Part shown: positions 7,502-37,472 of the stretch, in pieces
How the letters are laid out: each line of letters starts with the position of its first letter
Position numbering within the stretch: the stretch's first letter is position 1
Assembly (NCBI GenBank): GCA_963843685.1
Contig: CAWJLO010000005.1
Coordinates: forward strand, 790-64,789
Direction: 5' to 3'
DNA length: 64,000 nt
From: an uncultured Chloroflexia bacterium
Lineage (GTDB): Bacteria > Chloroflexota > Dehalococcoidia > DSTF01 > JACRBR01
Translations under genes and position numbers: made by a program
Notes under the pieces: model-generated
The model's database searches: none
Seen by the model: only the letters and a program-made list of their open reading frames with translations
Told to the model about the DNA's origin: nothing

Positions 7502-7534
7502 TGCCAGCGTACGGGTTCGGCGTACGGTGACAGG

Positions 7535-7975: not shown

Positions 7976-8054
7976 GCCCTCCCCTGCCCCATCCCTGGCG
8001 CCTAGAATGGCAGCGTCGGCCGCAACAACCAGATTCGGAACGAGGACAGGCGCG

Positions 8055-12227: not shown

Positions 12228-12239
12228 TCAGGGGCAATC

Positions 12240-13274: not shown

Positions 13275-13284
13275 GGGTTCGTCC

Positions 13285-17566: not shown

Positions 17567-18825
17567 TCGTCGATTCAACCCACGTCCACGAGGCCACGCC
17601 GTCGCTCGCCGCGGACATCGCGCGCTGCGTGCACTGTGGTTTCTGCCTGCAGGCGTGCCCGACCTACCTTGAGCTCGGCATGGAGACGGACTCCCCGCGC
17701 GGCCGCATCGCCCTCATTGATGCGATGACGTCCGGGCGGGCGGAGCCGTCCCCCTCCTTGCTCGGCCACCTCGACCTCTGCCTCCAGTGCCGCGCGTGCG
17801 AGACGGCGTGCCCCTCCGGCGTCGCATACGGCCGGATCATGGAGACGGCGCGCGCGACGGTTTTGGAGAGCCCCGCCCGGCCGACGTCCTGGCGCCTGCG
17901 TGCGCTCCTGTTGCGGGCCGTGCTGCCGCATCGGTCGCGTGTCGGCGCGCTGATGGGCGCCCTGCGCCTGTACCAGCGTTCGCCGTTGCCCATGCTGGCC
18001 CGCCGCGTGCCTGCGCTCCGCGGGGCCGACGCGTCGCTGCCCCGGCTCCCGCACGCGTCGTTCCGCCCACCGGAGCAGCCCGCCGGGCTTACGCGCTCCG
18101 TCGCGATGCTGACGGGCTGCGTGATGGGCCAGATGTACCCGCGCAGCCACGCCGCGACCGTCCGCGTCTTGAACCGGCTCGGATATCGCGTGCTCTTCCC
18201 GGAGGGCGAGACGTGCTGCGGCGCACTCAGTTTGCACGCGGGCGACCGCCGCTTTGCGCGAAAGCTCGCCCGGCGGAACGTCGACGCGTTCCTCGCCGCA
18301 GGGGTTGAGGCGATCATCGTCGACTCCGCCGGCTGCGGCTCCACGATGAAAGAGTACGGCGAACTGCTGGCGTCGGACCGGACGTACGCAGAGCGCGCTG
18401 AGCATTTCGCCGCGATGACGAAGGACGTGCTCGAGTTCGTCGCCGAGCACGATCTCGGCGCGTTGGGCGCCGTCCCTCGCTCCGTCACCTATCAGGACTC
18501 GTGTCATCTCGTGCACGCCCAGAAGGTCGCGCGGGCGCCGCGGGTGATCCTCTCGGCCATCCCGGGGCTGGAGCTGCGAGAGATGACCGCCCCTGACCGA
18601 TGCTGCGGCAGCGCCGGCCTCTACAGCTTCGTCCAGCGCGACATGTCCGCCCGGCTGCTCGACAGCAAGATGGACGACGTGCTGGCGACCGGCGCATCCA
18701 CCGTGGCCACCGCGAACCCTGGCTGCATGTCGCAGCTCGAGGCCGGCCTGCGCCTGCGCAACGCCCGGGGCTCCGTCGTCCACGTCATCGAGCTGCTTGA
18801 TGAGGCGATGCGCGCCGGCGTGTGA
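17563..18825 (+). CDS. glcF: glycolate oxidase iron-sulfur subunit GlcF
   Basis: A GTG start overlaps the glcE stop with GGGAGG upstream. Two 4Fe-4S motifs (CVHCGFCLQACP, CLQCRACETACP) and a CCG domain are present. Confidence 0.8.
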   Translation: MIVDSTHVHEATPSLAADIARCVHCGFCLQACPTYLELGMETDSPRGRIALIDAMTSGRAEPSPSLLGHLDLCLQCRACETACPSGVAYGRIMETARATVLESPARPTSWRLRALLLRAVLPHRSRVGALMGALRLYQRSPLPMLARRVPALRGADASLPRLPHASFRPPEQPAGLTRSVAMLTGCVMGQMYPRSHAATVRVLNRLGYRVLFPEGETCCGALSLHAGDRRFARKLARRNVDAFLAAGVEAIIVDSAGCGSTMKEYGELLASDRTYAERAEHFAAMTKDVLEFVAEHDLGALGAVPRSVTYQDSCHLVHAQKVARAPRVILSAIPGLELREMTAPDRCCGSAGLYSFVQRDMSARLLDSKMDDVLATGASTVATANPGCMSQLEAGLRLRNARGSVVHVIELLDEAMRAGV

Positions 18826-18840
18826 GCGGCGCGTCTTCCC

Positions 18841-20457: not shown

Positions 20458-20466
20458 ACGGACCGT

Positions 20467-21474
20467 TCAGCCCGCCGACGGTCCCAGGACGCGCCGCACG
20501 AGGTCCGCGAGCGGCTCCTCCGGCCTCGCGCCGACGTGGCTGATCACTTCTGCCGCCGCGATGCCCCCGATACGGCCGCACGTCGCCAGCGGCAGCCCGC
20601 GCGTCAGCCCGAACAAGAACCCCGCCGCGTACGCATCCCCCGCACCGGTCGAGTCGACGACGTGCGCCACAGCCTCCGCGTCGATCACGTGCAGTTCGTC
20701 ATCGCCCGCGACGATGACAGAGCCCTTCTCGCTCCTCGTCAGCGCGGCGATCTCGCACTTCGTGCGCACGTGCTGCAGCGCCTCGTCGAAGGTGCGCGAC
20801 TGGTACAGCGACATGATCTCGTGCTCGTTGGCGAACAGGACGTCGACGTGGTGCTCCACGAGGTCCAGGAACTCCTCGCGGTGCCGTTCCACGCAGAACG
20901 GGTCGGACAGCGAGATCGACACACGGCGCCCGGCGGCGTGTGCAAGGCGCGCCGCCTTCAGAAAGGCCTGCTTCGCGCCCGGCGGGTCCCACAGGTAGCC
21001 CTCCATGTACGTGACCGACGACGCGGCGATCACCTCCGCATCGACGTCATCGGGCTGCAACTCGCTCCCCGCGCCGAGGAACGTCTGCATCGTGCGCTGT
21101 GCGTCTCCGGTCACGAAGATGAGGCAGCGGCCCGTCGGCGTGCCCCCGGTCGCTGCAGGCACGTCGAACGCCACGCCCGCCGCGCGGATGTCGTGCCGGA
21201 ACACCTGCCCGAGCTGGTCGTCGTTCACCTTGCCGATGTAGGCCCCGCGCCCGCCAAGCGACGCCAGCGCGGCCATCGTGTTTCCCGCGGACCCCCCCGA
21301 TACCTCCACCGCCGGCGGCATGCCCGCGTACAGCTCCTCCGCCCGCGCCGCGTCGATCAGCGTCATCGCGCCCTTCGTCAGCCCGTTGGCCGGAAGGAAG
21401 GCCTCGTCGGCGTGCGCGATGACGTCGACCATCGCGTTTCCCATCCCCACCACGTCGAAGGTCGTGCCGCTCAT
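20467..21474 (-). CDS. PfkB-family carbohydrate/adenosine kinase
   Basis: GMGNAMVDV...DSTGAGDAYAAGFLFG (PfkB signature 2). Confidence 0.75.
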   Translation of the reverse strand: MSGTTFDVVGMGNAMVDVIAHADEAFLPANGLTKGAMTLIDAARAEELYAGMPPAVEVSGGSAGNTMAALASLGGRGAYIGKVNDDQLGQVFRHDIRAAGVAFDVPAATGGTPTGRCLIFVTGDAQRTMQTFLGAGSELQPDDVDAEVIAASSVTYMEGYLWDPPGAKQAFLKAARLAHAAGRRVSISLSDPFCVERHREEFLDLVEHHVDVLFANEHEIMSLYQSRTFDEALQHVRTKCEIAALTRSEKGSVIVAGDDELHVIDAEAVAHVVDSTGAGDAYAAGFLFGLTRGLPLATCGRIGGIAAAEVISHVGARPEEPLADLVRRVLGPSAG

Positions 21475-21661
21475 CCGCTGCTCCTCGCGCTCGTGCCCGC
21501 GCCGCAAGGTGAATACCGGGTGTCCCGGGCCGTGTCAACGCGGCGTCGTGGTTATGTCTTGTACCGACCGCCGGGGATCTGGAGCCCGGAAGATGTGACG
21601 GAGTCAACGGTTCTGCTACTATCCCGCAAACGAGGGCAACACCGTGAGGAGGCATATCCCC

Positions 21662-22579
21662 GTGCGCAAAGTCCCACTCCTGATCGTAGCGCTGGTTGCG
21701 CTGCTTGGCGTCGTTGCCGTGGCCTGTGGCGGCGGCAGCAAGAAGACCATTAACATTCCGGGCGTCGGAAACGTGTCGACCAGCAACAAGCTGCCGTCGG
21801 ACTTCCCCAGCGACTTCCCGACGTACAAGGGCGCCGACGTGCAGGCGAGCACCACCGGCACGTACAACGGCATCTCCGGGCTCTACGTCGTCTGGCAGAC
21901 AGGCGACAGCGTCGACAAGGTGAAGTCGTACTTCGACGACCAGTTCAAGAGCAGCGCGTGGAAGTCGACCACTACCGCGACCACCAACGGGACCTCGTAC
22001 TGGATCGTCACGAGCCCCGACGGCAAGAAGGAAGGCTACGTCAGCGTCTCGGACGTAAGTGGCAAGACCTCGATCTCGGCCGCCATCGGCGACAGCACCA
22101 GCGGGTCCGATAACAGTTCTGACAACTCGGGCTCCTCCTCCCAGGACACACCGACATCGAGCGACAGTGGCAGCTCGAGTTCCGACAACAGCGGCGATAA
22201 CAGCTCCAGCTCCGCGAATCTGCCGGACGAAGTGAGTCTTGACTCTAACTTCCCGAAGGACCGAGTGCCGTTTCCGGACAACACGCGCGTTACGAGTTCG
22301 TCGTCATACAGCAGCAGCGGCGAGACGAACTACATCGTCGAGATCTACGTGAAGGACTCCGCTTCGAACGTCAACGACTACTTCAAGAACGAGCTGCCGA
22401 AGCACAACTGGACGAACGCGTTCACTTCGAACTCGAACGGCTCTTACCTTCAGACGTACGGTGGTGCCACCCCGTCTGACCCGTCGCAGCAGGGGGAGAC
22501 GTTGAACCTCACGATCCAGGACTCCGATGTGTCTGGCTACGTGGACGTCACTATCCTCGTCTCCGTCGCCGGCTCGTAG
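21662..22579 (+). CDS. secreted lipoprotein with Ser/Asp/Gly-rich low-complexity linkers
   Basis: GAGGAGG lies 9 nt before the GTG start. A signal peptide with a LVAVAC lipobox is followed by long SSDNSGSSS tracts. Confidence 0.55.
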   Translation: MRKVPLLIVALVALLGVVAVACGGGSKKTINIPGVGNVSTSNKLPSDFPSDFPTYKGADVQASTTGTYNGISGLYVVWQTGDSVDKVKSYFDDQFKSSAWKSTTTATTNGTSYWIVTSPDGKKEGYVSVSDVSGKTSISAAIGDSTSGSDNSSDNSGSSSQDTPTSSDSGSSSSDNSGDNSSSSANLPDEVSLDSNFPKDRVPFPDNTRVTSSSSYSSSGETNYIVEIYVKDSASNVNDYFKNELPKHNWTNAFTSNSNGSYLQTYGGATPSDPSQQGETLNLTIQDSDVSGYVDVTILVSVAGS

Positions 22580-22599
22580 CAGCCGCCTCGCGCGATCGC

Positions 22600-22642
22600 G
22601 ACGAAGCCCCGGCCCGCTAGGCCGGGGCTTCGTCTTGTGCTT
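22600..22642 (+). terminator. intrinsic terminator: 15-bp perfect stem (GACGAAGCCCCGGCC/GGCCGGGGCTTCGTC) plus a T-rich tail
   Basis: Seen directly, 20 bp after the lipoprotein stop. Confidence 0.65.
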
Positions 22643-22684
22643 CAATTCGAGCGACATCACAGTCGATAGGCCCGAGGTCGAACA

Positions 22685-23934
22685 ATGATCTCCGTCGAAG
22701 AGGCGCTCGAGCGCATCCTCGCCTACGTCAGCCTCTTGGAACCGGTCGAGCAGCCCCTGCTCGAGGCGCTGGGCCAGGTCGTCGCTGACGACGTTATCTC
22801 GGACATCGACATTCCCCCGCTTGGACAACACGTCGATGGACGGCTACGCCGTGCGCGCGGCCGACACCTCCGGCGCATCGTCCGAGCGGCCCGTCTCGCT
22901 GAACGTGACGGGCGAGCTGGCCGCCGGATACGTGTTCGAAGGCACGGTGCGAGCCCGGCGCCGCCGTCCGCATCATGACGGGCGCCCCCATGCCGGCGGG
23001 CGCCGACGCCGTCGTCCCGTTCGAGGAGACCGACGAGCCGCAGGGACGCGCCTTTGGCTCCTTCGCCAAGTCCCGCTCGTCCGTCGGTGTGCTGAAGGGC
23101 GCATCGCCCGGCGCGAACGTCCGCAACCGCGGCGAGGACGTGCGGCGCGGCCAGGTCGTCCTCTCGAAGGGCGCCGTGCTCCATCCGCCGCAGCTCGGCG
23201 TCCTCGCGTCGCTGGGCATGGCGACCGTCCGCGTCTACCGCCGCCCCACGATCGCCATCCTCTCCACCGGCGACGAGGTGCAGCAGCCCGGCACGCCGCT
23301 CCGTCCCGGCCAGATCTACGACAGCAACGCCTACAGCATCGCCGCGATGGTCCAGGAGGCCGGCGGCGTGCCGAAACTCCTCGGCATCGCGACGGACACC
23401 GTCGAAGCGCTCACGGCAAAGCTGCGCCAGGGCCTCGACTGCGACATGCTCGTCACGTCCGCCGGCGTTTCGCGCGGCGACTACGACGTCGTCAAGGACG
23501 TCCTGGCGAAGGAGGGCGAAGTCGCGTTCTGGACCGTGCGCATGCGGCCGGGGAAGCCGCTCGCGTTCGGCGCGTTCCCGTCAGGCGACCGCCGCGTGCC
23601 GCACATCGGCCTGCCCGGCAACCCCGTCAGCTCCATGGTCTCGTTCGAGCTGTTCGGCCGCCCGGCGATCTTCAAGATGCTCGGCCGCACCGACTGGCAG
23701 CGGCCCGTTGTGCGCGCCGTCGCCGAGGAGCCGATCACGAACCCCGACGCCCGCCGGGTGTACGCCCGCGCCATCGTCACGAAGCGCGACGGCCGCTACT
23801 ACGCCTCGCTCACCGGGCCGCAGGGATCGGGCATCCTCACGTCGATGGCGCTGGCCAACGCGCTCGCGATCGTGCCGGAGGACGTACCCGTCGTCGAAGC
23901 AGGCCAGGAGGTCGACGCGATCCTGCTCGACTAG
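22685..23934 (+). pseudogene. moeA: molybdopterin molybdenumtransferase MoeA, interrupted by two +1 single-base insertions (about 22820 and about 22950)
   Basis: The three reading frames carry consecutive MoeA segments: MISVEEALERILAYV...DIDIPP, then DNTSMDGYAVRAADTSGAS...YVFEGTV, then EPGAAVRIMTGAPMPAGADAVV... through the C-terminus. Confidence 0.6.
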
Positions 23935-23936
23935 CG

Positions 23937-24245
23937 TCACATTTCGACGCTGAAGCGCGCGAAGCCCTGGCTCGCCTCGCTGTACTCGCAGTCGACGTCT
24001 TCCACCTTCGCGAACCGGGGCCCTTCACGGACAACCGCGACCAGCGCGTCGATGGCCGCGTCTTCGCCCTCGGCGACGAACTCCACGCCGCGGCCGTCGT
24101 CGCTGTTGCGCACCCAGCCGGTGATGCCGCGCGCCGTCGCTTCCTGGCGCACGAAGTCACGAAACCCGACGCCCTGCACGCGCCCGGTCACCGTCGCCTG
24201 CACCCTCTTCGTCGGCAGACCTCCCGTCGCTCGGCCCTCCCGCAT
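23937..24245 (-). CDS. acyP: acylphosphatase
   Basis: [18 protein letters not shown]...[18 protein letters not shown], intact. Confidence 0.75.
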
Positions 24246-24321
24246 AGTCTATCGTCGCGCCGATGGCAGCATACGTGCAACCGCCCGCTTCGGGACGCGC
24301 GGCCCGTGCTATCCTCCAGCG

Positions 24322-25265
24322 ATGCGCGTCGTCTTCATGGGCTCGCCCGAATTCGCCCTTCCCTCGTTACGACAACTGATCGCCCACGGACACGACGTCG
24401 TCGGTGTGTTCACGCAGCCCGACCGCCCGTCGCGGCCGCGGCCGCAAGCCCGCACCGCCTCCGGTGAAGATGCTGGCGCTTGAGCAAGGGCTGCCGGTGT
24501 TCCAGCCCGCCTCGGTCAGCAAGCCGGAGTCCGTCGAGCAGCTACGCCAGCTAGCGCCGGACGTCGGCGTCATCGCCGCATACGGGCAGATCCTGCGGCA
24601 GCGGGTGCTCGACGTGCCGCCGCTGGGCGTGTTGAACGTCCACGCGTCGCTGCTGCCCCGCTGGCGGGGCGCTGCGCCGATCCCGGCGGCGATCCTGGCT
24701 GGCGACGCCGTCACCGGCGCCACCATCATGCAGGTGCGCCTCGCGCTCGACGCCGGCCCGATGCTGGCGCGCGTGGAGGTGCCCATCGGCGCCGACGACA
24801 CGACCGCGACGCTGACGCCGCGCATCGCCGAGGCCGGCGCCGAGCTGCTCGCCGACGTGCTGCCGAAGTGGGCGGCCGGCCAGATCGTCGCGGAGGAGCA
24901 GGACTGACGCCCTCGCGACTTACGCGCCCCAGATCGAAAAGTCAGCGGCTCTCATCGACTGGGCGTCCGACACAACGGAGATCGTGTGCCGCAAGGTGCG
25001 CGCCTACGACCCGTGGCCGGTGGCGTATACGCTCGTCGACGGGCAGCCGCTGCGCGTCCTCGCGTGCGCGCATGCCTCGGAAGCCGGCGACGCGGCGCCG
25101 GGTACGGTCTTCCTTCGCGATGGAGCGCTGTGCGTCGCCACGGTCGGACGGGGCGGTGGCGATCTGACGCGGGTGCAGGGGCCAGGCGGCAAGCCGATGT
25201 CCGGCGCGGAGTACGCGCGCGGCCACGCCGCTGTCATCGGGCGGAAACTGGTCGGCGGGGGCTGA
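24322..25265 (+). pseudogene. fmt: methionyl-tRNA formyltransferase Fmt, interrupted by two +1 single-base insertions (about 24431 and 24905)
   Basis: Frame a reads [37 protein letters not shown]. Frame b reads [25 protein letters not shown]...KWAAGQIVAEEQD. Frame c reads DALATYAPQIEKSAALIDW...VRAYDPWPVAYTL...VQGPGGKPMSGAEYARG. Together these give a complete Fmt. Confidence 0.6.
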
Positions 25266-25577
25266 TGGCCGCGCTGCGGCGGCGAATGGGCGAACAGACA
25301 TCGCGATCGATAGACCTCGCGCGGCGAGAGTGCTAAACGGCGTTGTTTTCATCCTGCGGGCGTACGATCGCGCTCGTCGGCGCCTGTGCGTTGCCGGGGA
25401 TGATTGACTGGTTACATCGTGGCGGATCGTGCTGCGACACTAACAGCGTGCCCGACGGATCTCCGAGCGATTGGTGTCACGGCGGACGGTGCTGGGCGAC
25501 GCCCCATGGCGTCTGCTACGCTCCCCCCACGCTCGGGCGCGCCCTCTGTGGGTACAGAGCGTGAGAGGCGAAGTAGC

Positions 25578-26312
25578 GTGGGATCGGGGAAGGTTCTCAA
25601 ATCCGTGTCGCTGACGTCCGCGAGACTCTGCACCGTGGCGTTGGCGGCTCTTGCCCTGCCCCTGCTCGCGTCGTGCAACTCGTCGTCCGGCGGGGCGGGG
25701 ACGGCGACGAGCGTCGCGATGGCCACGGCACCCGCGTCGGCCAGCGGTGACGCTGCGCTTGCCGAGACCATGCTGATGGTGAAGGACGACCTGCCGTTCG
25801 ACTGGCACGCCGCTCCCCATCCCACCAATAACGATGAGGCGACCCTGTCAGCGGCCTGCGGCCGGACTTCGGCGCCGGGCATCACGGCGCGCGCCACGAG
25901 CGTCGAATACCTGTTCGACGGTCAGTCGCCCGGCATCATGGAGGTACTCAGCATGTTCGACTCTGAGGCCGACGCGCGAGCCAGTGTCGACGGAGCGACG
26001 GCGTTCATCGACTGCGCGATCACCCAGATCAACGGCGGCGCCATCGATACCGCCGAACAGCGCTACTCCGGCGCCATGAGCAGCCCCGTCGCGGTCGCGA
26101 GTGGTGGCCAAGGATCAGCCGCGTTCGAGATCTCGGCGACGGTCTCGTTCACCTCGTCCAGCGGCCGGGCCACGGCGGCGTACACGTTCGTGTTCGGCTC
26201 AAAAGGGCGTGTGGAGTACGAGATCTTCGTGCGTGGGAGCGGCGAAGCGTTCGATCCGGACGAGCTCTCCGACTACGTGCAGACGGCCACGAGCCACATC
26301 TCGCTGCAGTAA
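25578..26312 (+). CDS. lipoprotein of unknown function
   Basis: A GTG start has a purine-rich RBS upstream. Signal peptide ...LPLLASC is followed by a Ser/Gly linker. Confidence 0.5.
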   Translation: MGSGKVLKSVSLTSARLCTVALAALALPLLASCNSSSGGAGTATSVAMATAPASASGDAALAETMLMVKDDLPFDWHAAPHPTNNDEATLSAACGRTSAPGITARATSVEYLFDGQSPGIMEVLSMFDSEADARASVDGATAFIDCAITQINGGAIDTAEQRYSGAMSSPVAVASGGQGSAAFEISATVSFTSSSGRATAAYTFVFGSKGRVEYEIFVRGSGEAFDPDELSDYVQTATSHISLQ

Positions 26313-26333
26313 CGAGAGCTTGAGCCCGTTACG

Positions 26334-28229
26334 CTATCCCCCCGCGCGGGCGACGTCCGCCGGCGCCACGACCCGCAGCGGGATCGTGTCGGCGTAGCGG
26401 TCCTCGATCACGATGTCGCCGTCCGCCACGTCGCGGCAGGCGTCGCAGCGGATGCACTTCGCGTCGTCGATCGACCAGGAGCCGGGGCCGCCGACGATGG
26501 CCTGCGTCGGGCAGATCTCGGCCGCGCCGGAGATGTGGTCGCGCTGGCTGACGACCCGGTATCGGATGAGGTCGGGGCAGACCTTCGCCGGGCAGCGGTG
26601 CTCCAGCGCGTGGGCGTCGTACTCCTCGCGGAAGAACTGCAGCGTGTTGTTGATCAGCACCGGCGAGAGCTGGCCGTGGAAGCAGTTGGAGTTCTGCATC
26701 GACGCCGCCAGCGACTTTATGTGGTCGACGTCGCTCGCTTCGCCCTGGCCGCGGGCCGCGCGGTTCAGGATCTCCAGCATGCGCTGGTTGCCGATGCGGC
26801 ACGTCGTGCAGCGCGCGCAGGACTCGTCCTCGACGAACCACGACGTCATCACGTTGACGTCGACGACGCACGACGTGTCGTCCAGGAAGACGATGCCGCC
26901 GCCGCCCATGCCGGCGCCGAGCGGGCGGAACGGCTCCGGCTCCAGCGATATGTCGGCCGCGACGCTCGCCGGCAGCATGCCCGAGAGCGGGCCGCCCTGC
27001 TGCATGGCCTTCCACTGCCGCCCGCCCGCGATGCCGCCGACGGTCTTCAGCAGGTCCTGCACCTTCGTCCCGAACGGCACTTCGACGCATCCCGTCCGGG
27101 CGACCCTACCCGAAACGGTAAACATCTTCGTGCCCAGGTTCATGTCCGTGCCGACGGTGTTGTACTGGTCCCGGCCCACGCGCATGAGCGTCGTGACGCA
27201 GGCGTAGGTCTCCACGTTGTTGACGTTCGTCGGCTTCGCCAGCACGCCGCTCTGCGCCGGGAACGGCGGCTTGATGCGCGGCTGGCCGCGCTCGTCGTTC
27301 ACCGACGAGATGAGGCCCGTCTCGTCGCCGCAGACGTAGGCGCCGGCGCCGCGCACTACCTCCGCATCGAAGTTGACGCCGGTGCCGAGCGCGTTCTCGC
27401 CGAGGATCCCTCTCTCGCGGCATTGCTCGAGCGCGCGGTTGACGCGGTCGTTGGCCAGCGGGTACTCGTCGCGGAGGTAGATCCAGCCGTGCGTGGCGCC
27501 GCTGGCGTGCGCGCCGAGCAGCAGGCCCTCGATGAGCATGTGAGGGTCGCTCTCCATGACGACGCGGTTCACCCAGGCGCCCGGGTCGCCCTCGTCGGCG
27601 TTGCACACCAGGTACTTCGGCTCGGCGTTGGCGGTGCGCAGGAAGTCCCACTTGGTGCCGGTCGAGAAGAAGGAGCCGGAGTGGCCGCGCAGCGTCGAGC
27701 CCTTGACGAGGTCGATCAGCTCCAGCGGCGTCATCTTCGTTGCCTCGAAGAAGTGCGAGTAGCCGCCGCGTGCGATGTAGTGGTCGATGTTCTCCGGGTC
27801 GATGACGCCGCAGTTGTGCATGAGCCAGCGCGTCTGCCCCGCCATCCACTCGATGCTGTCGAGGGCAGGCACGCCGTCCGCGCTGACCGGAGACGGTGCC
27901 GATGGCGAACTCCGTCGCTACGCCCGCCAGCGCCGCCTTCGCGAACGCCTCAGCCTTGTCCGGCGTGACGTGGCCATAGAGGACCGACTGCCCACCCGGC
28001 TTCGTCACCTGCACGACGGGCTCGGCCCACGACATGCCGGTGTCGCCGGTCTGCATCACGTCGAAGCCGGCGCTCTCGCCGAGCTTGCGCAGCGCAGCCA
28101 GCGTCTCGTCGGCATGCGACGCGAGCGACGACGTGTTGATGGAGACGATGAACAGCGGCCGCGACGGCTGCTCGACGGCCTTCCAGGCGGCGTCGGCGGC
28201 TGCGCGCAGCTCCTCGTACGACGGCATCA
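26334..28229 (-). pseudogene. nuoF: NuoF-like NADH-binding flavoprotein (51-kDa subunit homolog with thioredoxin-like N-domain and C-terminal 2x[4Fe-4S] ferredoxin domain), interrupted by a -1 frameshift at about 27885
   Basis: The N-terminal 115 aa (MPSYEELRAAADAAWKAV...EFAIGTVS) are in one frame. The remainder (ADGVPALDSIEWMAGQTRWLMHNCGVIDPENIDHYIARGGY..., an SLBB domain, CxxCxxCxxxC) is in the -1 frame. The ATG overlaps the nuoE stop (TGATG). Confidence 0.6.
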
Positions 28230-28705
28230 GGCCTTCTCCTTCAGGTCGCGGGCGAAGCGGACGGTGTCCGCCGCCGTGAGGGGGCCGACGACCTTGCCGT
28301 CGAGCCAGACCTGCGGCGCGTGCTCGCACGTTCCGTTGCACTGCGCCAGGACCATGCCGACCTTATCGCCCTCGGTGTTCTGGCCCATGCCGATGCCGAG
28401 CTCCGCCTCGAGGATCTTGCGGACGTGCTCGCCGCCCTTGAGCCGGCAGGCAGGGCCGCTGCACCAGCCGATGAGCGTCTTCGGCGGCGGCGTCAGGCGG
28501 AACTCGCTGTAGAACGTGACAGCGCCGTAGACACGCGCCTCGCTGAGCCGCAGCTGCCGCGCGACGACGGACATCGACATCTTCGGGATGTAGCCGTAGC
28601 GGTGCTGGACGCGGTGGAGCGCGGCGAGCAGGTCGCCGTCACCGGGCTTGAGGTCGCGGATCAGGTGCTGGATCTCGAGCGTGGCTTCGTTGTCGAGAGG
28701 CATGC
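28227..28705 (-). CDS. nuoE: NuoE-like 2Fe-2S thioredoxin-fold subunit (24-kDa subunit homolog)
   Basis: MPLDNEATLEIQHLIRDLKPGDGDLLAALHRVQHRYGYIP...CSGPACRLKGGEH...CNGTCEHAP. CAGGAG lies 12 nt upstream. Confidence 0.8.
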
Positions 28706-28737
28706 CGGCGGGCGCTCCTGATTGTGCGCCGCATTCA

Positions 28738-30142
28738 CTATAGGGGAGGGTGGGTGGTTCGGGACAACGAGCGCGTGCCGGACGCTGCCATGCCCTGGTG
28801 CAGGCCGTAGCCCCCACGCTTCGCCGTGTACATCCGTCGAACCAACCATCTTCGCGCCGACGTCGTCGCCCATCTTGATGCTGTAGTTCTGCCGCGGTCC
28901 TCCGGGTAAAGATCTTGCGTCATCGTCTCGAGGGATAGAGGCCCTGCGACGCGGCGTGCGGTGGTCGGGCTTGTCGGCGCTGTAGCCGGTCTTGATGATG
29001 GGCTGCGCGAACGGCGCCGCGAACAGCCACCGCCGCGTGATCCAGTCGGGCGAGAACGCGGGGTTGATCTTCTTCAGCGCCGGCTCGTACAGCGCCCACA
29101 GCTCGTCCTCGGACATCGAGAGGTACGGGTGGTCCTGGCTCAGGTAGTTGGAGATGTAGAGGATGTGCTCCCCGCCGTAGTTCTCCGGGCCGACGAAGTT
29201 CGTGTGCTCGATCACGGCCAGGAACGGCATGCTGCGGTCGCCGATGTTCATCCAGTAGATGGGCGAGAGCGAGCGCTTCATCGTCAGCACCATGCACAGC
29301 GCCGCCTGCCACCCCACCGCCCCGAGCTGCCGCTCGTACTCCGGCGTCAGCGGCGGCGCCATCTTCTTGAACAGCAGCGACGGGATCGCCGCCACCACAG
29401 CGTCGGCCGCGACCTCCGTGCCGTCCGCCAGCACGATGCCGGTCGCGCGGTTGTCCTTGGCCGTGATCCGCTGCACCGGCGATGACGTGCGCACGTCGAC
29501 GCCGCCGGCCCGCAGGCGTCGCTCCATCTCGTCGATGTACACCGCGAAGGAGCCCATCAGGTAGCCCAGCTCCTCCTTCTGCGACACCCCCTGCCGCGAC
29601 TGGAAGCGCAGGTGGATCTTGCTCCACAGCCACGCCATCGCGACCTGGTCGTAGGCGTCGCCGTACTTCCCGTGGAGCATGACGCCCCAGAACTTGTCGA
29701 ACACCGCCTTGGAGACGTTCTTCTCGATCCAGTCCTTCGCCGTGATGCGCTCGAACTCCGCCCAGTCGTCGCGCCGGCGCAACCGCAGCCCCATCAGGCC
29801 GAGGCGGATGCGGTCCAGCGGCGGCAGCGGGGCGAACTTCAGCAGGTCGAAGGGCGTTACCAGCGGGTAGAGCTTGCCGTCCGTGAACCAGCCGACCTTC
29901 GACTCGATCCACTTCAGGTCGCCGCCGTAGCCCAGCTCCTTGATCAGATCGATGATCGTCGTGTCGGTGGAGAACAGGTGGTGGTAGTACGACTCGAGCT
30001 TCGTGCCGCCGACCTCGAAGGTGCGGACGAGGCCGCCGAGCTGGTCGCTCGCCTCGTACAGCGCGACCTCGTGGCCGCCCTGCATCAGGCGGTAGGCCGT
30101 GGTCATGCCGGCGACGCCGCCGCCGATGACGACGACCTTCAC
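28738..30142 (-). pseudogene. NAD(P)/FAD-dependent oxidoreductase (amine-oxidase/desaturase-like), with a C-terminal region disrupted by about three single-base indels (28840-28945)
   Basis: The N-terminus has a Rossmann dinucleotide-binding motif (MKVVVIGGGVAGMTTAYRL). At the C-terminus, protein-like segments alternate between frames (..KPDHRTP, then VAGPLSLETMTQDLYPEDRG, then QNYSIKMGDDVGAKMVG, then ..RMYTAKRGGYGLHQGMAASG..*). The last frame stops 30 bp before nuoE. A GTG start overlaps the stop of the upstream gene. Confidence 0.5.
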
Positions 30143-31377
30143 TTCCGGCCCGACCCCTCGACCGCGGGGCGGCCCGGACGCGCGACCGCCGGCACCGTCT
30201 CCTCGAGGTCCTCGACGAGCGCCTCGGCCTCCGCTTCCGCCTCAACCCGCGCGGTGCCCTGCAGCATCTCGCCGAAGCTGAGGTCCATCGACCACATCAG
30301 AATGAGGCCGGCGGCGACGACGGGCAGCAGCAGGATGGCGTGCAGGCCGATGGCGTACGCGGCGGCGTCCTGCTGCAGCGTGCCCGCGCCGGCCGCGCCG
30401 AAGGCGATGATCGTCTTCGACACCACCAGCTCGAACGCGCCGACGCCGCCCTGCGTGGCGACGATGGCGATGGCGAGGTTGGCGGCGGCCGTGATCAGCA
30501 GGAAGACGGTGAAGCTCTCGTGGATGCCGAACGCCCGCGCGACGATGAAGTACACCGTCGCTTCCAGCGACCAGGAGATGAGCGACGTCAGCCACGCGAA
30601 GAACAGGTCGACGGGGCTGCGCAGCGCGTGCAGGCCGTCGAAGAACGAGTGCAGGATGCCCTCCACCTTCGGCTTGACCCGCGCCGGCGCAAACCGGTGC
30701 ACCAGCCGGTGGAGCAGCCGCCGGCCGCTGTCCGAGAGCGCGAGGTAGAACAGGATGCCGAGCGCGATGCCGAACAGCACAGCCATGACGATGCCCAGCC
30801 CCACGAAGTTCAGGTCGTGCCCGAACACCTTGAAGCTCGCCTGGTCGCCGACGATGGCGGCGCAGATGAACATCATCGGGATCAGCGTCACGCCGTCGAA
30901 CAGCCGGTCCACGGCGATCGTGCCCAGGGACGTCGTCTTGCTGATGCGTTCGCGCTGGCCGAGCACGTAGGCCCGCGCCAGCTCGCCCGCGCGGGCGGGG
31001 AGGACGTTGTTCGCCATCAGGCCGACGAGGACGACGGGATAGAGGCGGAGCGCGCTGACCTTCTTCACGGGACGCAGCAGGTACTGCCAGCGGACGGTGC
31101 GGACGAAGAGGCCCAGGAAGTAGATCGGCAGCGCCAGCAGGGCCAGCTTCCAGTCGGCGTTCTCGAAGGCCCGCTTCATGTCCGGGAACTTGTCCCAGTT
31201 GCGCCACACAAACCAGCCCAGCAGGAGCCCGGTGACGACCATGCCAATCCAGAAACCGCGGCTCTTGAGCAAGGTGGGAGTCTCCAGTGGGGGAATACGG
31301 GCCGGCCGGAGGGCGCTCGCTGTTATGTTCGGCCGCCGGACCCGCGCATTATAGAGTCCGCGCCGGGGCCGCCTCAA
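30139..31377 (-). CDS. UPF0104 / lysylphosphatidylglycerol-synthase-TM-like (flippase-like) integral membrane protein
   Basis: About 8 TM segments, a YbhN/LPG_synthase_TM-like topology, and an acidic EAEAEAEALVEDLEE tail. The N-terminal start is uncertain. Confidence 0.6.
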   Translation of the reverse strand: MRRPRRGLYNARVRRPNITASALRPARIPPLETPTLLKSRGFWIGMVVTGLLLGWFVWRNWDKFPDMKRAFENADWKLALLALPIYFLGLFVRTVRWQYLLRPVKKVSALRLYPVVLVGLMANNVLPARAGELARAYVLGQRERISKTTSLGTIAVDRLFDGVTLIPMMFICAAIVGDQASFKVFGHDLNFVGLGIVMAVLFGIALGILFYLALSDSGRRLLHRLVHRFAPARVKPKVEGILHSFFDGLHALRSPVDLFFAWLTSLISWSLEATVYFIVARAFGIHESFTVFLLITAAANLAIAIVATQGGVGAFELVVSKTIIAFGAAGAGTLQQDAAAYAIGLHAILLLPVVAAGLILMWSMDLSFGEMLQGTARVEAEAEAEALVEDLEETVPAVARPGRPAVEGSGRK

Positions 31378-31424
31378 TGAAGCTGTGGCGCCCGAAGATC
31401 AAACGATCCTCGGGCGCCCTTATG

Positions 31425-34400
31425 TCACTTTATGATGTCGCTCAGCGGGATCTTCCGCACCACGTTCCCCGCCGAGTCCGCCACCAGCACGGACGTGCCG
31501 TCCGTCGCGATGCCCACCGGCCGCTCCAGCGGCGACTGGCCCTCGCGCGGCAGCGCGTACGAGGCGACCTGCTTCCCCGCCTGGTCGAACACCAGCACGT
31601 TGCCATCGGACGACGAGGTGCAGCCGACGCTGCCGCACGGGTTGGGGTCCGTGACCAGGAGCCGCCCGTCGGGCAGGAGCGCGAGGTACGGCCGGTCCGT
31701 CACGTTAAAGCTTCCCCATGACGGGACAGGGATCTCGCTCTTCTGGTTGAAGTCCTTGTCGAGCACGAGGATGCGCTGGTGCCAGAAGTCGGCGATGTAG
31801 ATGTCGCCGTTCGGCGCCACCGCCAGGCCCGTCGGCTCCTTGAGCTTCAGCGTCGCCGCCGCGTCTTCGTCCTTCCCGCCGATCTGCCGCACGTAATCGC
31901 CGTCCGGCGTGTACTCGACGATGCGGTCGTTGCCCGTGTCGGCGATCAGGATGTTCCCGGACGGCTCCACGACGATCTTGCGCGGGCCGTAGAGCTTCAT
32001 CGGATCCCCGCCGGCGTCGACCTGGCCGCCGCTGCCCCAGCTCGTGACCTTCTTCAGGTCCTTGTCGAGCTTCACGATCGTGTGGTTCCACGTGTCGGCG
32101 ACGTAGACCGTGCCGTCCGGCGCGACGGCCATCGACCACGGCTGGTTGAGCTGCACGTCCGAGCCGAAGCCGCCGGCCGCGGCGATGAACTTGCCGTCGG
32201 CGTCGTACTTCTCGATGCGGCTGTTGCTGGTCGCGCTGTCGGCGACGTAGATGTTGCCCTGCGCGTCGAACGCGACGTCAGCCGGCGCGCTGAGCTGGCC
32301 CAGCGCCGTGCCCGTGCCGCCGATGACGATCTGATCGCCTTCGGTGTGGACCGTCGGCCCAACGGGTTGCGTGGGCACGCCAGTGAAGTCGGACGGGAAG
32401 AATGCGACGGCATCGGAGTCGCCGACCGGCGCCGGCAGCGTGCGGCGCACCCAGAAGTCGAGCCAGTACTTCACCTCGCCGGAGAAGAGATCGCTGAAGA
32501 AGTTCTGCGACGAGTACATACCGTCCGCGCCGCGGTACTCCTCCGGGAACCAGCGCCGGTGGTGATACGGGATCGGCTGGCCGTAGCCGCTGCCGACCTG
32601 GACGTTCGGCGCGTCGTCTTTGCTCGCGAGCACGACGGAGCCCGGTGGAGGCGTGTACGCCGACGACATCGACGGGTAGTTGACGGCCTTGTAGTTCCGC
32701 AGGTACCACGCCCACGGCCACGTGTACCCGTCGATCGGGTCCACCTCAATCGGCAGGTTCTTGCCCTGGCCGGACTGCTTGGCGTACTGGTCGATGCGGT
32801 CCATGAGCGCCGGGATGTCGCCGGAGGTCTGCGTGTAGACCAGCAGCTCATCCGGCACCTCGCCGTGGTCCTGGGTCGTGAGCACGCTGTCGAGATACGT
32901 CGTGTTGTCCGGATGGCCCCACGAGGCGAGGATGCCCGCGCGCAGCGTGAAGACGCCGGCGGCGGCGATGAATCCCACCAGTGCCACCTGCCACGCCGTA
33001 CGTCTGCTGTACCCGCGGTACGACCAGTACACGGCGACGAACGCGACCAACACCAGGATCCAGCCGCCGATCGACGCAGGCGAGCGCCAGCCGATGATGA
33101 CGAACACCAGGATCGCGAGCGCTGAGGCGACGGCCGCGTACATGTACGGCGCGAAGCGCTCGATCTTCGGGATGTCATCTCGCAGGTCCGTGCGCTGGAG
33201 GAAGTCGCCGACGAACTTGCCGGCGAGCACCGCCAGCGGCAGCGCGATGTGCACGTTCAGCCACGGCATCTTCTCGCCGGCGACCGTCAGCGCGAACGCC
33301 GTGATCACGGCCCAGTACATCAGGAAGCGCGTCAGGCGGTCCATCGGGAACGCCAGCACGGCCACGACGACGAGCATGAACGGCAGCACGATGTGCAGCA
33401 GCGAGACCTTCTGGAACTGCGGGCCCGATGGCAGCAGCAGCAGCGCGATGATGGCGACGAAGATCGCCGCGACGTAGAGCGCGTACTGCAGCTTGCCGCG
33501 GATCGCGTAGTAGCAGGCCGCGATGATCGAGAGGATCAGCGGCAGGAACTCGTACACGGGGATGGTGATGAAGTAGTAGTAGTCGGGCTGGTTGCCGCGG
33601 CGCACGTCCTGCTGGCTGATCCAGTAGTCCATCGAGCCCCAGATGCCCGAGAAGAAGCCCGCGGGGTTAGAGAAGAACGTCGTGTAGAGGAGGACGAACG
33701 GGATCCAGAAGCAGGCGGCGGCGATGAGCCAGACCTTCGGCTTCCACAGCATGCCCAGCGACACCGAGACGGCGATCAGCGACCAGATCATCACCATCGC
33801 CACGCCGAACTCCTGCGTGGCGATGTGCGAATCGCTGTTGTCGCCGGCGCGGTTGCGCCACTCCTTGCCGAAGAACGGCAAGAACTGGACGCCCGCCGCG
33901 TACTGCGGCAGCGCCAGCGTCCCCATCACGATCACCAGGTTCGCTTCTGGAGGCAGCTCCTCCAGGTCGTAGCGCTCTCGCCACTTCTGGAGCCACGGCC
34001 AGCCTATGGCGATCGCCCAGGCGATGAACGAGAGGCCGATGATGAGCGCCGCATACTGCGCCGTCGACATGTTCTCCGACTTCGCGCGGATGCGGTCCGC
34101 CAGGTGCGTCGCGAACATGAAGTCCATGAACAGGATGAAGGCGCCGACGGTCATGAACGTCGTCTCCTTCGTGCAGAAGGAGCCGGCCATGAATCCCGCC
34201 GTCAGGTAGAGGTAGCGGTCCTTCTGCGTGGCGATGTACCGCCACATGAAGATGACGATCCCGAACGTCCAGAACGCGGTGTAGATGTCCTCGCGCGTGA
34301 AGCGGCTGTAGTACATCAGCGTCGGCGAGATGGCGATGAAGGCCGCGGCCGCCAGCGCGCCGACTGTGCCGAGCTGTCTCCGGAACAGCCACGGCATGAA

Positions 34401-34811
34401 GACCAGGGCCGTGCCCAGCGTGGCGGCCAGCGTCCGTGCCTGGAACTCCCCGTCCTGGAAGATCCACATGACGAAGCCGTTGCCGATGAACTGGAACGGC
34501 CCGTGCATGAAGGGCACGTGCTTGTAGTTGTCGGTGTTCGCCGTGCCGAACGTGAAGAACTCGCGGAGCGCCTTCGTGAAGCCGTAGCTGAAGTAGCCGT
34601 GCAGGCTCTCGTCGTGGTGCATGGCCCGGTCGCCGAGCTGGTAGAAGCGCAGCACGGCCGCGAAGACGACCAGCACGCCGTAGGCGGCCAGCTCCCAGTA
34701 GCGCGTCGCCAGCCCCGTGATCCGCTCGCGCGTGGCCTCGTCCACGGCGAACGTCTTCAGCCGTTCGCCCGTCGTGCCCCCGTACTGAGCCTCGGGTTCC
34801 TGCACGCTCAT
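31425..34811 (-). CDS. large membrane protein: N-terminal GT-C-like (PMT/ArnT-like, TIGR03663-type) polytopic domain fused to a C-terminal NHL-repeat beta-propeller
   Basis: 1128 aa. The N-terminal half has more than 12 TM segments and a HHDESLHGYFSYGF motif typical of TIGR03663/PMT_2-like proteins. The C-terminal 300 aa contain repeated NHL-like units (GNIYVADSATSNSRIEKY, GTVYVADTWNHTIVKL, GNILIADTGNDRIVEY, GDIYIADFWHQRILVL). Confidence 0.7.
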   Translation of the reverse strand: MSVQEPEAQYGGTTGERLKTFAVDEATRERITGLATRYWELAAYGVLVVFAAVLRFYQLGDRAMHHDESLHGYFSYGFTKALREFFTFGTANTDNYKHVPFMHGPFQFIGNGFVMWIFQDGEFQARTLAATLGTALVFMPWLFRRQLGTVGALAAAAFIAISPTLMYYSRFTREDIYTAFWTFGIVIFMWRYIATQKDRYLYLTAGFMAGSFCTKETTFMTVGAFILFMDFMFATHLADRIRAKSENMSTAQYAALIIGLSFIAWAIAIGWPWLQKWRERYDLEELPPEANLVIVMGTLALPQYAAGVQFLPFFGKEWRNRAGDNSDSHIATQEFGVAMVMIWSLIAVSVSLGMLWKPKVWLIAAACFWIPFVLLYTTFFSNPAGFFSGIWGSMDYWISQQDVRRGNQPDYYYFITIPVYEFLPLILSIIAACYYAIRGKLQYALYVAAIFVAIIALLLLPSGPQFQKVSLLHIVLPFMLVVVAVLAFPMDRLTRFLMYWAVITAFALTVAGEKMPWLNVHIALPLAVLAGKFVGDFLQRTDLRDDIPKIERFAPYMYAAVASALAILVFVIIGWRSPASIGGWILVLVAFVAVYWSYRGYSRRTAWQVALVGFIAAAGVFTLRAGILASWGHPDNTTYLDSVLTTQDHGEVPDELLVYTQTSGDIPALMDRIDQYAKQSGQGKNLPIEVDPIDGYTWPWAWYLRNYKAVNYPSMSSAYTPPPGSVVLASKDDAPNVQVGSGYGQPIPYHHRRWFPEEYRGADGMYSSQNFFSDLFSGEVKYWLDFWVRRTLPAPVGDSDAVAFFPSDFTGVPTQPVGPTVHTEGDQIVIGGTGTALGQLSAPADVAFDAQGNIYVADSATSNSRIEKYDADGKFIAAAGGFGSDVQLNQPWSMAVAPDGTVYVADTWNHTIVKLDKDLKKVTSWGSGGQVDAGGDPMKLYGPRKIVVEPSGNILIADTGNDRIVEYTPDGDYVRQIGGKDEDAAATLKLKEPTGLAVAPNGDIYIADFWHQRILVLDKDFNQKSEIPVPSWGSFNVTDRPYLALLPDGRLLVTDPNPCGSVGCTSSSDGNVLVFDQAGKQVASYALPREGQSPLERPVGIATDGTSVLVADSAGNVVRKIPLSDIIK

Positions 34812-37472
34812 CTCTGCGCCGCCTCCACCTCGCCTGTCAGGCCCGTCGTTCGATATATCGTAACCGCTCCGTATTGCGCCGCCACCGGCATCGATTGGAA
34901 CTTGTCCATGCCCGGGCCCGGGTACAACTGCCTCTCAACATCTCCTACGATCACGAAGGTGATCCCGTATTTCTTGACGATCCGGTCCATCTCTGCCTGG
35001 TCCGTCGTCGTGTACAGGCCGGCGAGATCCTTCATCCGCTCATCGCATTCGGAGCAACGCCCGCCGCGCCACTGGTCCTCGTGCCCTCTCCAGCCCACCA
35101 CGGCCGGGACGCCCGTCGCGGTGGAGAACCGCGCGAACTCTGGATTGTAATCGTCTTTCGCTGCCTCCGCGATGACGAAGTCCTGCCCCTGGGCGATGCC
35201 CTGGAGCCACGCGACGGCCTGCTGCTCGTCCGGAGAGAGGAAGCGGCTGGCGTGGAGACTGCCGTCGAAACTGTGAATGCGGTTGGCCGTGCCTCCGAAC
35301 GGGAACGTCGCCGCCCCCAACAACACCACGACGGCCAGCACCGCCCACCCCGCGCGATACCACGTCGCTCGCGGAAAGCTCGCCTTCCACCGGCTGCTCA
35401 GGTAGTACACGGCGAACCCGGCCGCGACCGCGAGCATCATCCACGCCTGGTAGTAGAGCTTGAACACGGTGTTCATGCGCGAGTGGAATACGTCGCCCAC
35501 GAAGAAGAACTCCGTGCCGAGCACCAGCAGCAGCGCCGTCGCGATCAGCCCCAGCACGAAGATCAGCGGCTCACGCTCGCCGTCCGGCTCAGCGCCGGCG
35601 TCGCGCCGTGCCGTGACCTCGCACCACAGCGCGACCAGCGCCGCTGCCAGGAGCGCGCCGAGGAAGAGCGCCGTGACCCAGCCGTTGCCACGGTCGCCGA
35701 TCTGCGTGAACAGCCCGGTGTGGCTGCCGCCGAGGTTCGCGCTGCCATTCGTGTGCTCGAACAGGAAGACGGCAGCCCAGCCGGCGATGACGAGCACCAA
35801 CGGCACGAAGGAGATCGCCGTCATCCTCCGCGTGATGCGGTCGCGTGCGGCCAGCAGCCGCGCCCCGACGAGCGGCAGCGCGAGCGCGAAGAGGGGCCCC
35901 CAGAAGATCAGCAGGTGCAGCGGCTTGGTCGCCGGGATGCTGATGTTCGGATTGGAGACGACGGCGCCGATGCCACTCGCCTGCGACGTGAAGCTCAGGT
36001 AGAACGGCAGGTACAGCACCACCGCCAGCACGATGAGCGGCACGGCGAACGACAGCGCCTGCACCGCCAGCTCCGCGATCCAGCCGCCAAAGTACATCCG
36101 CGCCAGCACGATCAGCTCCAGCACGATCACCAGGCCCACCACGCCCGCGCCGGCCCGCCCGCCGAACGTCGTCGCGAGCGCGAACGCCAGGAGATTGACG
36201 ATCAGCCCGACGATCACGACGTTCCACGTGGTCTGTGTGAACGTCGTCGCCGCGGGCGGTGGAGCGCCCGTGTCGCGCGCGCGCCAGATCTGCATGCCGT
36301 CCTTCAGCGTCGCCGCCCCGACGACGACGAACGCCATCGTCGCGATGTCCCACGTGTTCAGGAACGCCAGCCCGCCGACGATCATCGCCGCCGCGGCGAG
36401 CACCAGCGGCCGCTCCAGCCAGAACGCGAGATCGAGCGGCTCCGCGCTGCGGTACAGCGTCAGTGCCAGCGCCACCGCGATCAGCACGAACGGCAGCGCC
36501 ATCACATGCGGGTGCAGGTCGCCCAGCACGAAGCTGAACATCGGGAACTCGGTGATCACCCGCGCGGTGTCGTCCGCCTGGTTGAGCGGGTAGATGCGCG
36601 ACGCGTTGAAGAAGCCGAAGAACGCCGACGGGAACCAGCTGTGCCGCGCAGCCTTCGGCCCCAGCCCCATCGATATCGATCCAGTCGTAGAAGCTCTGGT
36701 TGCCGATGTGGCGTGACGACAGGAAGACGAACACCCAGCTGAGATTCCCCATCACGACGAGGAACAGCCCGCCGGCGACCCCGAACAACGGCGGCCGCCA
36801 CCTCAGCATCGAGCGCCCTGACTCCCCCGCCGGCGCCGGCGCACTCGCCGACTCGCGCATCTCCACCAGGTTGTAGACCAGCCCGGCGGCGCCGACGAGC
36901 GCCATCGCCGCGATCATCGCCAGCCCGACGTTGTACGCGACGTCCGTCGGCACCTCCGCCAGCCGGCCCGTCATGGCGACCAGCAGGTAGCCGAAGTAGT
37001 AGTACGCGACGGTGTGTCCGGAGAGCCACGGGTCCTGCGGCGGGAAGTGCGACGCGCGTGTCGCCGCATTCACGTACATCAGGTCCATCGGCTGCTCGGT
37101 GATGTTCGCGTAGCCTACCTTCGACCGCAGCCAGACGACGATCGCGAAGACGACGAAGAACAGCAGCTCGACGCCCAGCACGTACCAGCCGTGAGCCGCC
37201 ACCCACGTCCTCAGCCCCGCTCGCTCGCGATACACGACGACGCCGGACCCGAAGGCGATGAGCACCAGCACGAGCGTGACGCCGCCGTTCGAGTTCGGCA
37301 GCACCTGCAGGCTGTTGAGCAGCCAGAACAGGTATCCGACCAGCAGCAACCCGAACGGCTTGGAGAGCGCGTATCCGCGGTCAGGCAGGCGCCGGAAGAG
37401 CGCCTGGCACAGCGGGAACGCGAGCGTCCCGATCAGCAGGAGGACGAACCACCACCGCAGCGTCTCGCTCAC
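34808..37472 (-). pseudogene. Chlor_Arch_YYY (DUF2298/TIGR03662) family membrane protein, with a +1 frameshift at about 36665
   Basis: The N-terminal 270 aa carry the signature HTVAYYYFGYLLVAM. After SFYDWIDIDG the protein continues in the +1 frame (PKAARHSWFPSAFFGFFNASRIYPLNQ...ITEFPMFSFVLGDLHPHVMA...). The stop overlaps the start of the downstream GT-C/NHL gene. Confidence 0.55.

Follow-up and report, generated by a model that had tools for sequence, protein, structure and literature searches.

Insertions that break five conserved genes in a 64-kb Chloroflexota window indicate a consensus artefact

Five conserved genes in the window (the whole 64 kb stretch of soil-type Chloroflexota DNA analysed here, 68% GC) switch reading frame mid-gene: moeA, fmt, a nuoF-like gene, the gene for an FAD-dependent oxidoreductase and the gene for a DUF2298 ("YYY") membrane protein. 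The lesions are present in the sequence, specific to the window, biased towards insertion and located off homopolymers, and the same signature is found in related metagenome-assembled genomes (MAGs) built from Nanopore reads only. These results indicate that the affected block is a consensus artefact and not a real biological feature. The explanation that we favour, with some reserve, is that the frameshifts are assembly consensus errors rather than mutations of the organism, both alleles of co-assembled strains having been kept at variable sites.

Distribution and nature of the frame breaks

A codon-usage HMM applied to all six frames of the 64 kb placed every mid-gene frame switch between 22.7 and 37.5 kb (at ∼22811, ∼22949, ∼24904, ∼27890, 28955–28697 and ∼36671) and found no frame break in the remainder, where each coding segment terminates no more than 57 nt from its own stop codon. 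One candidate outside the block, at 49922, was rejected, being the normal ispE stop adjoining a GTG start. Those parts of the flanks that are comparable to relatives, at 15–22.6 kb and 37.5–44.8 kb, are clean, and no hidden frameshift was found on checking acyP, nuoE, the LPG_synthase_TM/UPF0104 gene or the gene for the 1128-aa PMT_2 + NHL protein. Rfam and tRNA scans returned nothing within the block, and its edges show no island-like discontinuity in base composition or GC skew.

Individual events (Table 1) were mapped with a custom aligner giving frameshift-aware protein-to-DNA alignments against orthologues. Raw six-frame ORF tblastn proved too noisy at 68% GC, and best-hit filtering with the frameshift-aware aligner was used instead; the survey of relatives at all loci combined tblastn frame comparison with a banded aligner.

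Table 1. Genes and insertion events of the block (coordinates in the window)
Feature	Coordinates	Strand	Description	Basis
moeA	22685..23934	+	MoeA_N, MoCF_biosynth, MoeA_C; three successive frames	L007/L001 orthologue alignments; Pfam on repaired protein
moeA +1	22820..22823	+	CCG-CTT-G-GAC; relatives have CTC/TAC/CAC then GAC
moeA +1	22949..22950	+	GTG-C-GAG; relatives have GTC/GTT/GTG then GAG
Acylphosphatase gene (acyP)	23937..24245	-	Intact
fmt (methionyl-tRNA formyltransferase)	24322..25265	+	Three frames and a short internal out-of-frame stretch
fmt +1	24432..24433	+	TCGC; L059 has TCC, L058 has AGC
fmt +1	24903..24905	+	GACT; L058 has G-CT, L059 has GAC-; makes an in-frame TGA
fmt hidden compensating pair	25146..25159	+	+1 (25146) and +2 (25158-59); four codons misread
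Window-specific intergenic insertions	25309..25385	.	+4, +1, +1, +1 against close relative L058; no deletions
nuoF-like gene	26334..28227	-	Complex1_51K, SLBB, NADH_4Fe-4S; split after residue ∼115
nuoF-like +1	27885..27886	-	Coding strand GGT-C-AGC; relatives have GGG/GGC then next codon
nuoE (2Fe-2S thioredoxin-like)	28227..28721	-	Intact
FAD-dependent oxidoreductase (Amino_oxidase/DAO family)	28661..30142	-	3' end scrambled, natural stop lost
Dense indel patch, FAD oxidoreductase	28823..28952	-	17 nt in, 1 nt out against L063, L062
LPG_synthase_TM (UPF0104) gene	30139..31377	-	Intact
PMT_2 (GT-C) + NHL-repeat protein, 1128 aa	31425..34811	-	Intact
DUF2298 membrane protein ("YYY")	34808..37472	-	Split after residue ∼268
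DUF2298 +1	36665..36668	-	GAT-GGGG-CTG; only event within a four-base homopolymer

The HMM and the alignments together bear out much of what an earlier note on this DNA had claimed: that five conserved genes are frame-broken, that the breaks are confined to the block while the rest of the window is clean, that the acyP, nuoE, GT-C/NHL and UPF0104 genes are intact, and that most lesions are +1 insertions, often off homopolymers. Its count of nine sites was too low. The +1 and +2 insertions of the hidden pair in fmt cancel, so that no ORF break is visible there, and the FAD oxidoreductase, to which three sites had been assigned, shows multiple events between 28952 and 28890 by frameshift-aware alignment and far more indels than that across its 130-nt patch. 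Nor is the block uniform, as had been supposed: the lesions are patchy, nearly all of them falling in 22.8–29.0 kb, with 36668 as an isolated outlier. Chance clustering is unlikely, at roughly (0.231)^5 or ∼7e-4 for five to six independent clusters in 23% of the window, although this rough figure is uncorrected for the post hoc choice of block.

Over the coding sequence, ∼26 nt are inserted and 1 nt is deleted; when the window is compared with L058, there are 8 insertion events and no deletions. Hardly any lesion has a homopolymer setting, and the one event in a G run, at 36668, may be an ordinary homopolymer error. Neither nonsense substitutions nor larger deletions were found in the affected genes. 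In the FAD oxidoreductase, displacements from L063 between fixed anchors across 28952–28823 are +4, +3, −1, +3 and +7 nt; the net +16 leaves the final codons and the stop out of frame, and with its natural stop lost the ORF extends to 28661, over the start of nuoE. All other relatives match L063 and L062 (91% identical) in length across the conserved coding part of the patch.

Since every isolated event needs a +1 shift, it might be asked whether full-length proteins are still made by programmed +1 ribosomal frameshifting or recoding, the more so as the zero frame runs into a stop at 24905 (GAC-TGA-C). We reject this as extremely improbable, because the seven isolated sites have no slippery motif in common and because no site is conserved in any orthologue, every one of which keeps to one frame throughout. 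The P-site tRNA at GAC-TGA would be expected to fail to re-pair in the +1 frame, and the FAD oxidoreductase patch would need at least six shifts within 60 nt. A CTGAC motif seen at three sites was dropped as post hoc, being absent from the remaining sites.

Repaired genes and their relatives

Four of the five genes (moeA, fmt, nuoF and DUF2298) were rebuilt by removing the extra bases, and each then translates as a full-length ORF that ends in a single stop and shows no further lesion. Compared with the closest relatives, repaired fmt has a dN/dS of 0.17 and repaired nuoF one of 0.19–0.21; codons 1–378 of the FAD oxidoreductase, which lie upstream of the damage, have one of 0.07. Unaffected neighbours give similar values (0.075–0.145), and the amino-acid identity of the affected genes to relatives is no lower than that of neighbouring genes.

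The nearest relatives in genome collections reach at most ∼83% protein identity, and searches of metagenomes gave none above 83%; close relatives were obtained only via a protein search and the contigs of its matches. No exact-sequence match to two intact window proteins was found in the collections searched. More than 20 related loci could be compared, each with a single intact ORF per site, and none has a break in common with the window. The earlier note had offered the same interruptions in sister genomes as the mark of real pseudogenes, while leaving the choice between artefact and recent pseudogenisation undecided; the evidence favours the former and tells against the latter.

Very recent pseudogenisation of a contiguous set of genes would account for frames that are truly broken in the given sequence, and for the grouping of the breaks in one neighbourhood. 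Nevertheless, we consider it very unlikely. At least 15 independent events would be required, nearly all of them insertions, and bacterial pseudogenes decay mainly by deletion. We found no lesion shared with the related loci compared, no relaxation of selection (dN/dS 0.07–0.21) and no stops or larger deletions arising in these genes, and perfectly intact genes are interleaved with the affected ones. A +1 insertion compensated by a +2 insertion 12 nt away, or 17 insertions in 130 nt, is an implausible pattern of natural mutation. Furthermore, other species assembled from Nanopore reads alone carry the identical signature at different positions. It is likewise highly improbable that the extra bases are real products of a recent, insertion-biased local mutational process acting over 6–14 kb, such as an error-prone repair or synthesis tract; were this so, one process would have disabled five genes simultaneously, namely fmt, moeA and those for a NuoEF-type flavoprotein, the FAD oxidoreductase and the DUF2298 envelope protein.

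Origin of the extra bases

Three related loci, L038, L013 and L001, have contig names of the kind found in the Microflora Danica (MFD) long-read catalogue, whose Nanopore-only assemblies were made with Flye and given a single Medaka polishing round (PMC12313526). L038 (an MFD MAG) carries patchy +1 insertions of unlike bases, 12 in its GT-C gene, 4 in SMC, 2 in moeA and at least 4 in DUF2298; L013 (also an MFD MAG) has one such +1 in its GT-C gene, and L001 has one frame change in DUF2298. Such +1 insertions are absent from 14 other related loci, whose platforms we judge from their short-read-style or JGI contig names. The window itself most probably derives from a long-read MAG of the same Nanopore-only type.

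Two sites in fmt suggest a merging of strain alleles. At 24903–05 and 25156–64 the window is the union of an L058-like and an L059-like allele; at the second of these it reads GTGGCGATC, against GT--CGATC in L058 and GTGGCG--C in L059. L058 is 93–96% identical to the window at the DNA level and its Fmt is intact (312 aa). We infer that a second, co-assembled strain probably contributed the other alleles, and the sequencing platform is inferred likewise. Under this explanation, wherever the strains differ the consensus step would, for some single- or multi-nucleotide variants, retain both alleles instead of choosing one. Strain variants mostly lie at synonymous third codon positions, so that an extra unlike base beside a third position would produce a +1 frameshift. 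Extra bases would accumulate in numbers where variants crowd together, as they do in the variable C-terminal tail of the FAD oxidoreductase. Some bases of that patch depart from a simple two-allele union, for example an extra C in TATCCCTC, an extra GTA and a GC repeat.

To what extent the +1 events resemble such doublets was assessed on 30 alignment-called events pooled from the window (where 5 of 7 are doublets), L038 and L013, and classed by hand from printed contexts. Unlike-base synonymous third-position doublets make up 24 of the 30, against 51% for random insertions aligned by the same program (p = 0.001), an enrichment that is moderate (p ∼1e-3) and sensitive to the aligner's placement of gaps. 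Same-base extensions account for 1 of the 30, against 29% for random insertions (p = 4e-4). We dropped the doublet pattern as near-decisive evidence: simulated random insertions likewise give 44–51%, and so we take it as moderate support.

A second kind of artefact is possible, if less probable in our view: very low depth, or bridging or gap-filling by one or a few uncorrected long reads, with no strain alleles involved. Random insertion errors would then survive polishing. The ∼13% of inserted bases in the 130-nt patch at 28952–28823 is near the raw error rate of long reads, about half of random insertions imitate third-position doublets, and patchy events with clean genes of 3–4 kb between them are what local drops in coverage would give. 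Set against this are the strong depletion of same-base insertions noted above and the two-allele union in fmt, which is unexpected from random error, as well as the undiminished amino-acid identity of the affected genes. Furthermore, residual Nanopore consensus errors have been described as homopolymer indels (PMC9262707), unlike nearly all events in the window.

Consequences and likeness to known systems

Our conclusion for the organism is that its own copies of the five genes (fmt, moeA, nuoF-like, FAD oxidoreductase and DUF2298) almost certainly work. The biological significance of the block is thus low and its practical significance greater. Automated annotation of this contig will split or drop five genes and, in fmt, will also translate four codons wrongly although the ORF looks unbroken there, and metabolic reconstruction would record false losses of Moco biosynthesis and initiator-tRNA formylation. 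The signature, patchy +1 insertions of unlike bases beside synonymous third positions and unconnected with homopolymers, also occurs in publicly available MAGs that were built for related species from Nanopore reads only, and polishing focused on homopolymers would not target it. As a possible marker of stretches where strains are microdiverse, it is a useful quality-control flag.

The block resembles genuine bacterial pseudogenes in that conserved genes are interrupted by frameshifts. It differs from them in the absence of relaxed selection, of stop substitutions and of lesions shared with relatives, and in events that are insertion-dominated, implausibly dense and partly self-compensating.

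Another likeness is to the frameshift errors of Nanopore MAGs, in which consensus indels truncate or split called genes (Sereika et al. 2022, PMC9262707). That the related Nanopore-only MFD loci are frameshifted, while the other assemblies checked are not, fits this class. The classical Nanopore error, however, is the homopolymer indel, whereas the window has a single event in a four-base run (GGGG), and same-base insertions are fewer than chance would give.

Haplotype merging in long-read consensus, where indels arise at nucleotides that differ between haplotypes, is known from early FALCON assembly (Korlach et al. 2017, PMC5632298). That case concerned a diploid bird and PacBio CLR reads, whereas here we would be dealing with strains in a metagenome and probably with Nanopore, Flye and Medaka. 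The indels of that published case were spurious, shifted the frame of otherwise conserved genes and were confined to the merged regions. In the window the likeness lies in extra unlike bases where close relatives vary and in the union of alleles at two sites.

Frame breaks within the block

GC content is ~68% across the whole window, and the edges of the block (22685-37472), where the earlier note had described single-base frameshifts in five conserved genes, show no compositional break. Because raw ORF lists are uninformative at this GC content, we trained a codon-usage model on long, high-GC3 ORFs and segmented the six frames by a Viterbi pass. Outside 22.7-37.5 kb, all coding segments end within 57 nt of their own stop codon; the sole doubtful junction there, at 49922, was rejected as a frame break, being a normal gene boundary (ispE stop, then a GTG start). 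Inside the block, the frame is left hundreds of bases ahead of any stop at ~22811, 22949, 27890, 28955 and 36671, and at 24904 the frame switch itself creates a stop.

Querying a single genome of each species with the intact 1128-aa PMT_2+NHL protein gave 51 related loci, all in Chloroflexota/Dehalococcoidia MAGs, the closest at ~80-83% protein identity. Frameshift-aware alignment of orthologous proteins from four related loci (L007, L019, L001 and L002) with the window DNA gave the events tabulated below; gene identities were confirmed by Pfam. By this approach acyP, nuoE, LPG_synthase_TM (UPF0104) and the PMT_2+NHL (GT-C/NHL) protein, all four previously reported as intact, are free of internal frameshifts, as are ftsY and three more flanking genes. 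For SMC, the alignment with the L019 orthologue stays in one frame. When one base is removed at each site, moeA, fmt, nuoF and DUF2298 read as complete ORFs, each with a single terminal stop; of the five broken genes, the rebuild covered these four. The broken frames of the earlier note are real, but its count was somewhat too low, given an extra pair of events in fmt and a patch in the FAD oxidoreductase.

Frame-disrupting events in the block, and full-length RNA genes outside it (end-to-end matches to their models)
Feature	Position	Strand	Detail	Basis
moeA	~22820 and ~22950		two +1	frameshift-aware alignment
fmt	24433 and 24905		two +1	frameshift-aware alignment
nuoF-like gene	27885		one +1	frameshift-aware alignment
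FAD oxidoreductase	28952-28890		several events	frameshift-aware alignment
DUF2298 ("YYY") gene	36668		one +1	frameshift-aware alignment
tmRNA	96-449	-	tag peptide GESQLALAA	model match
Bacterial large SRP RNA	53130-53392	-		model match

The gene cluster at 26334-37472 is a conserved one, present in many Chloroflexota MAGs (L001, L002, L007/L019, L052, L062 and others). It encodes a DUF2298 membrane protein, a PMT_2+NHL glycosyltransferase-like protein, LPG_synthase_TM, a FAD oxidoreductase, NuoE and a long NuoF-like protein. In the related locus L062, a further gene of 350 aa separates the oxidoreductase from nuoE, and moeA is missing beside acyP. The DNA identity of L062 to the window (15051-33560) is 83-93% inside the block versus 80.6% in the left flank, which may only reflect more conserved genes, and would also fit a different strain history of the block.

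Further damage in fmt and the FAD oxidoreductase

Proteins retrieved with the repaired Fmt as query include an intact one of 312 aa at 95% identity (L058), and others at 90% and 88%; the contigs of these close relatives (L058-L061) share 84-96% DNA identity with the window. Both fmt insertions are visible in the DNA alignment too, along with a further +1 at 25146 and +2 at 25158-59, which cancel each other, so that four fmt codons are misread while the ORF stays unbroken. More insertions, present in the window only, lie in intergenic 25309-25385. Against L058, the window shows eight insertion events and no deletions.

A ~67-nt segment that L058, L059 and L060 have after fmt, ahead of the lipoprotein gene, is absent from the window at 25418-25421; either natural variation in length or a further defect of the assembly could account for this. 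The adjoining 25421-25681, in which no Rfam family was found, comprises non-coding DNA and the start of the lipoprotein gene (signal peptide ending ...LLASC, near 25600-25680), and is 96.5% identical to L058, versus 93% across fmt.

At the 3' end of the FAD oxidoreductase, L063 and L062 (91% identical) match all other relatives in length. Measured between fixed anchors from 28952 to 28823, the length differences of the window from L063 are +4, +3, -1, +3 and +7 nt, that is, 17 nt inserted and 1 deleted within 130 nt. The net +16 takes the reading frame past the natural stop and on across the nuoE start (28721), with an apparent overlap at 28661-28800; a gene caller would give the oxidoreductase a false, long C-terminal extension.

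Artefact or mutation

No break is common to the window and any relative compared by protein and DNA alignment. The dN/dS of repaired fmt against L058 is 0.17, that of repaired nuoF 0.19-0.21, and that of the first 378 FAD oxidoreductase codons, upstream of the damaged end, 0.07; intact neighbours give 0.075-0.145. On these values, an inactivation could only be extremely recent, although it would comprise at least 15 separate events. Bacterial pseudogene decay has a deletional bias. Nearly every lesion here is an insertion (insertions to deletions about 26:1), opposite to that bias and so in favour of an artefact.

When the frames of eight genes were compared by tblastn across 17 related loci, three loci, L001, L013 and L038, showed frame changes; there were none in the other 14, whose contig names are short-read-style or JGI (platform inferred from names). 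The isolate names of the three (MFD05942.bin.2.242, MFD05942.bin.2.347 and MFD01561.bin.c.1) fit the Microflora Danica long-read catalogue, which is Nanopore-only, assembled with Flye and given one Medaka polishing round (PMC12313526). By banded aligner, L038 and L013 events are almost all +1 unlike-base insertions, patchy and at positions differing from the window's; in L038 they number 12 for the GT-C gene, 4 for SMC, 2 for moeA and at least 4 for DUF2298, and nuoF, fmt, UPF0104 and ftsY are clean. L038, a public chromosome-level Nanopore MAG (OY969567.1), holds at least 22 +1 non-homopolymer frameshifts (locus ~2600-13400 and 21000-23000); L013 and L001 hold one or two each.

Of the two explanations the earlier note had left standing, an artefact is the right one, on five grounds: the lack of shared breaks, low dN/dS, the insertion bias, the restriction of frame changes to MFD MAGs among the loci surveyed, and the similar signature of the events in L038 and L013; that the extra bases are real is very unlikely.

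Origin of the extra bases

Classical Nanopore error, described as homopolymer error by Sereika et al. (PMC9262707), is ruled out, as the events avoid homopolymers; only that at 36665-68 involves a run of four identical bases. Programmed +1 frameshifting was also rejected: the sites have no slippery sequence in common and are not conserved, and the FAD oxidoreductase would need at least six shifts within 60 nt. No motif is shared among the isolated sites. Read on the coding strand, the inserted base adjoins a third codon position and is unlike it (CTT followed by G, and likewise GTG/C, TCG/C, GAC/T, GTC/G and GGT/C).

Variants between strains are for the most part synonymous changes at third positions, so that retaining both alleles would yield exactly such unlike-base doublets. 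At one fmt site where relatives disagree, GACT is the union of G-CT (L058) and GAC- (L059); at another, GTGGCGATC is the union of GT--CGATC and GTGGCG--C, again from relatives that differ. The main alternative, likewise an artefact, is random insertion in a poorly covered or unpolished patch. As a null model, simulated random insertions were run through the same aligner, giving 51% synonymous unlike doublets (44-49% in a gene-level simulation), 29% same-base extensions and 20% nonsynonymous changes. We classed 30 alignment-called +1 events (window 7, L038 22, L013 1) by hand from printed contexts: 24 were synonymous unlike doublets, 1 same-base and 5 nonsynonymous. The excess of doublets (p = 0.001) and shortage of same-base insertions (p = 4e-4) come from a pooled test dominated by L038. 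Because of this, because about half of random insertions mimic the doublet pattern, and because several extra bases at 28.8-28.95 kb misfit a simple two-allele union, we regard the support for merging of strain alleles as moderate, and not as proof. Such merging has a counterpart in the long-read consensus errors of Korlach et al. (PMC5632298), where merged haplotypes produced indels at the nucleotides that differ between them.
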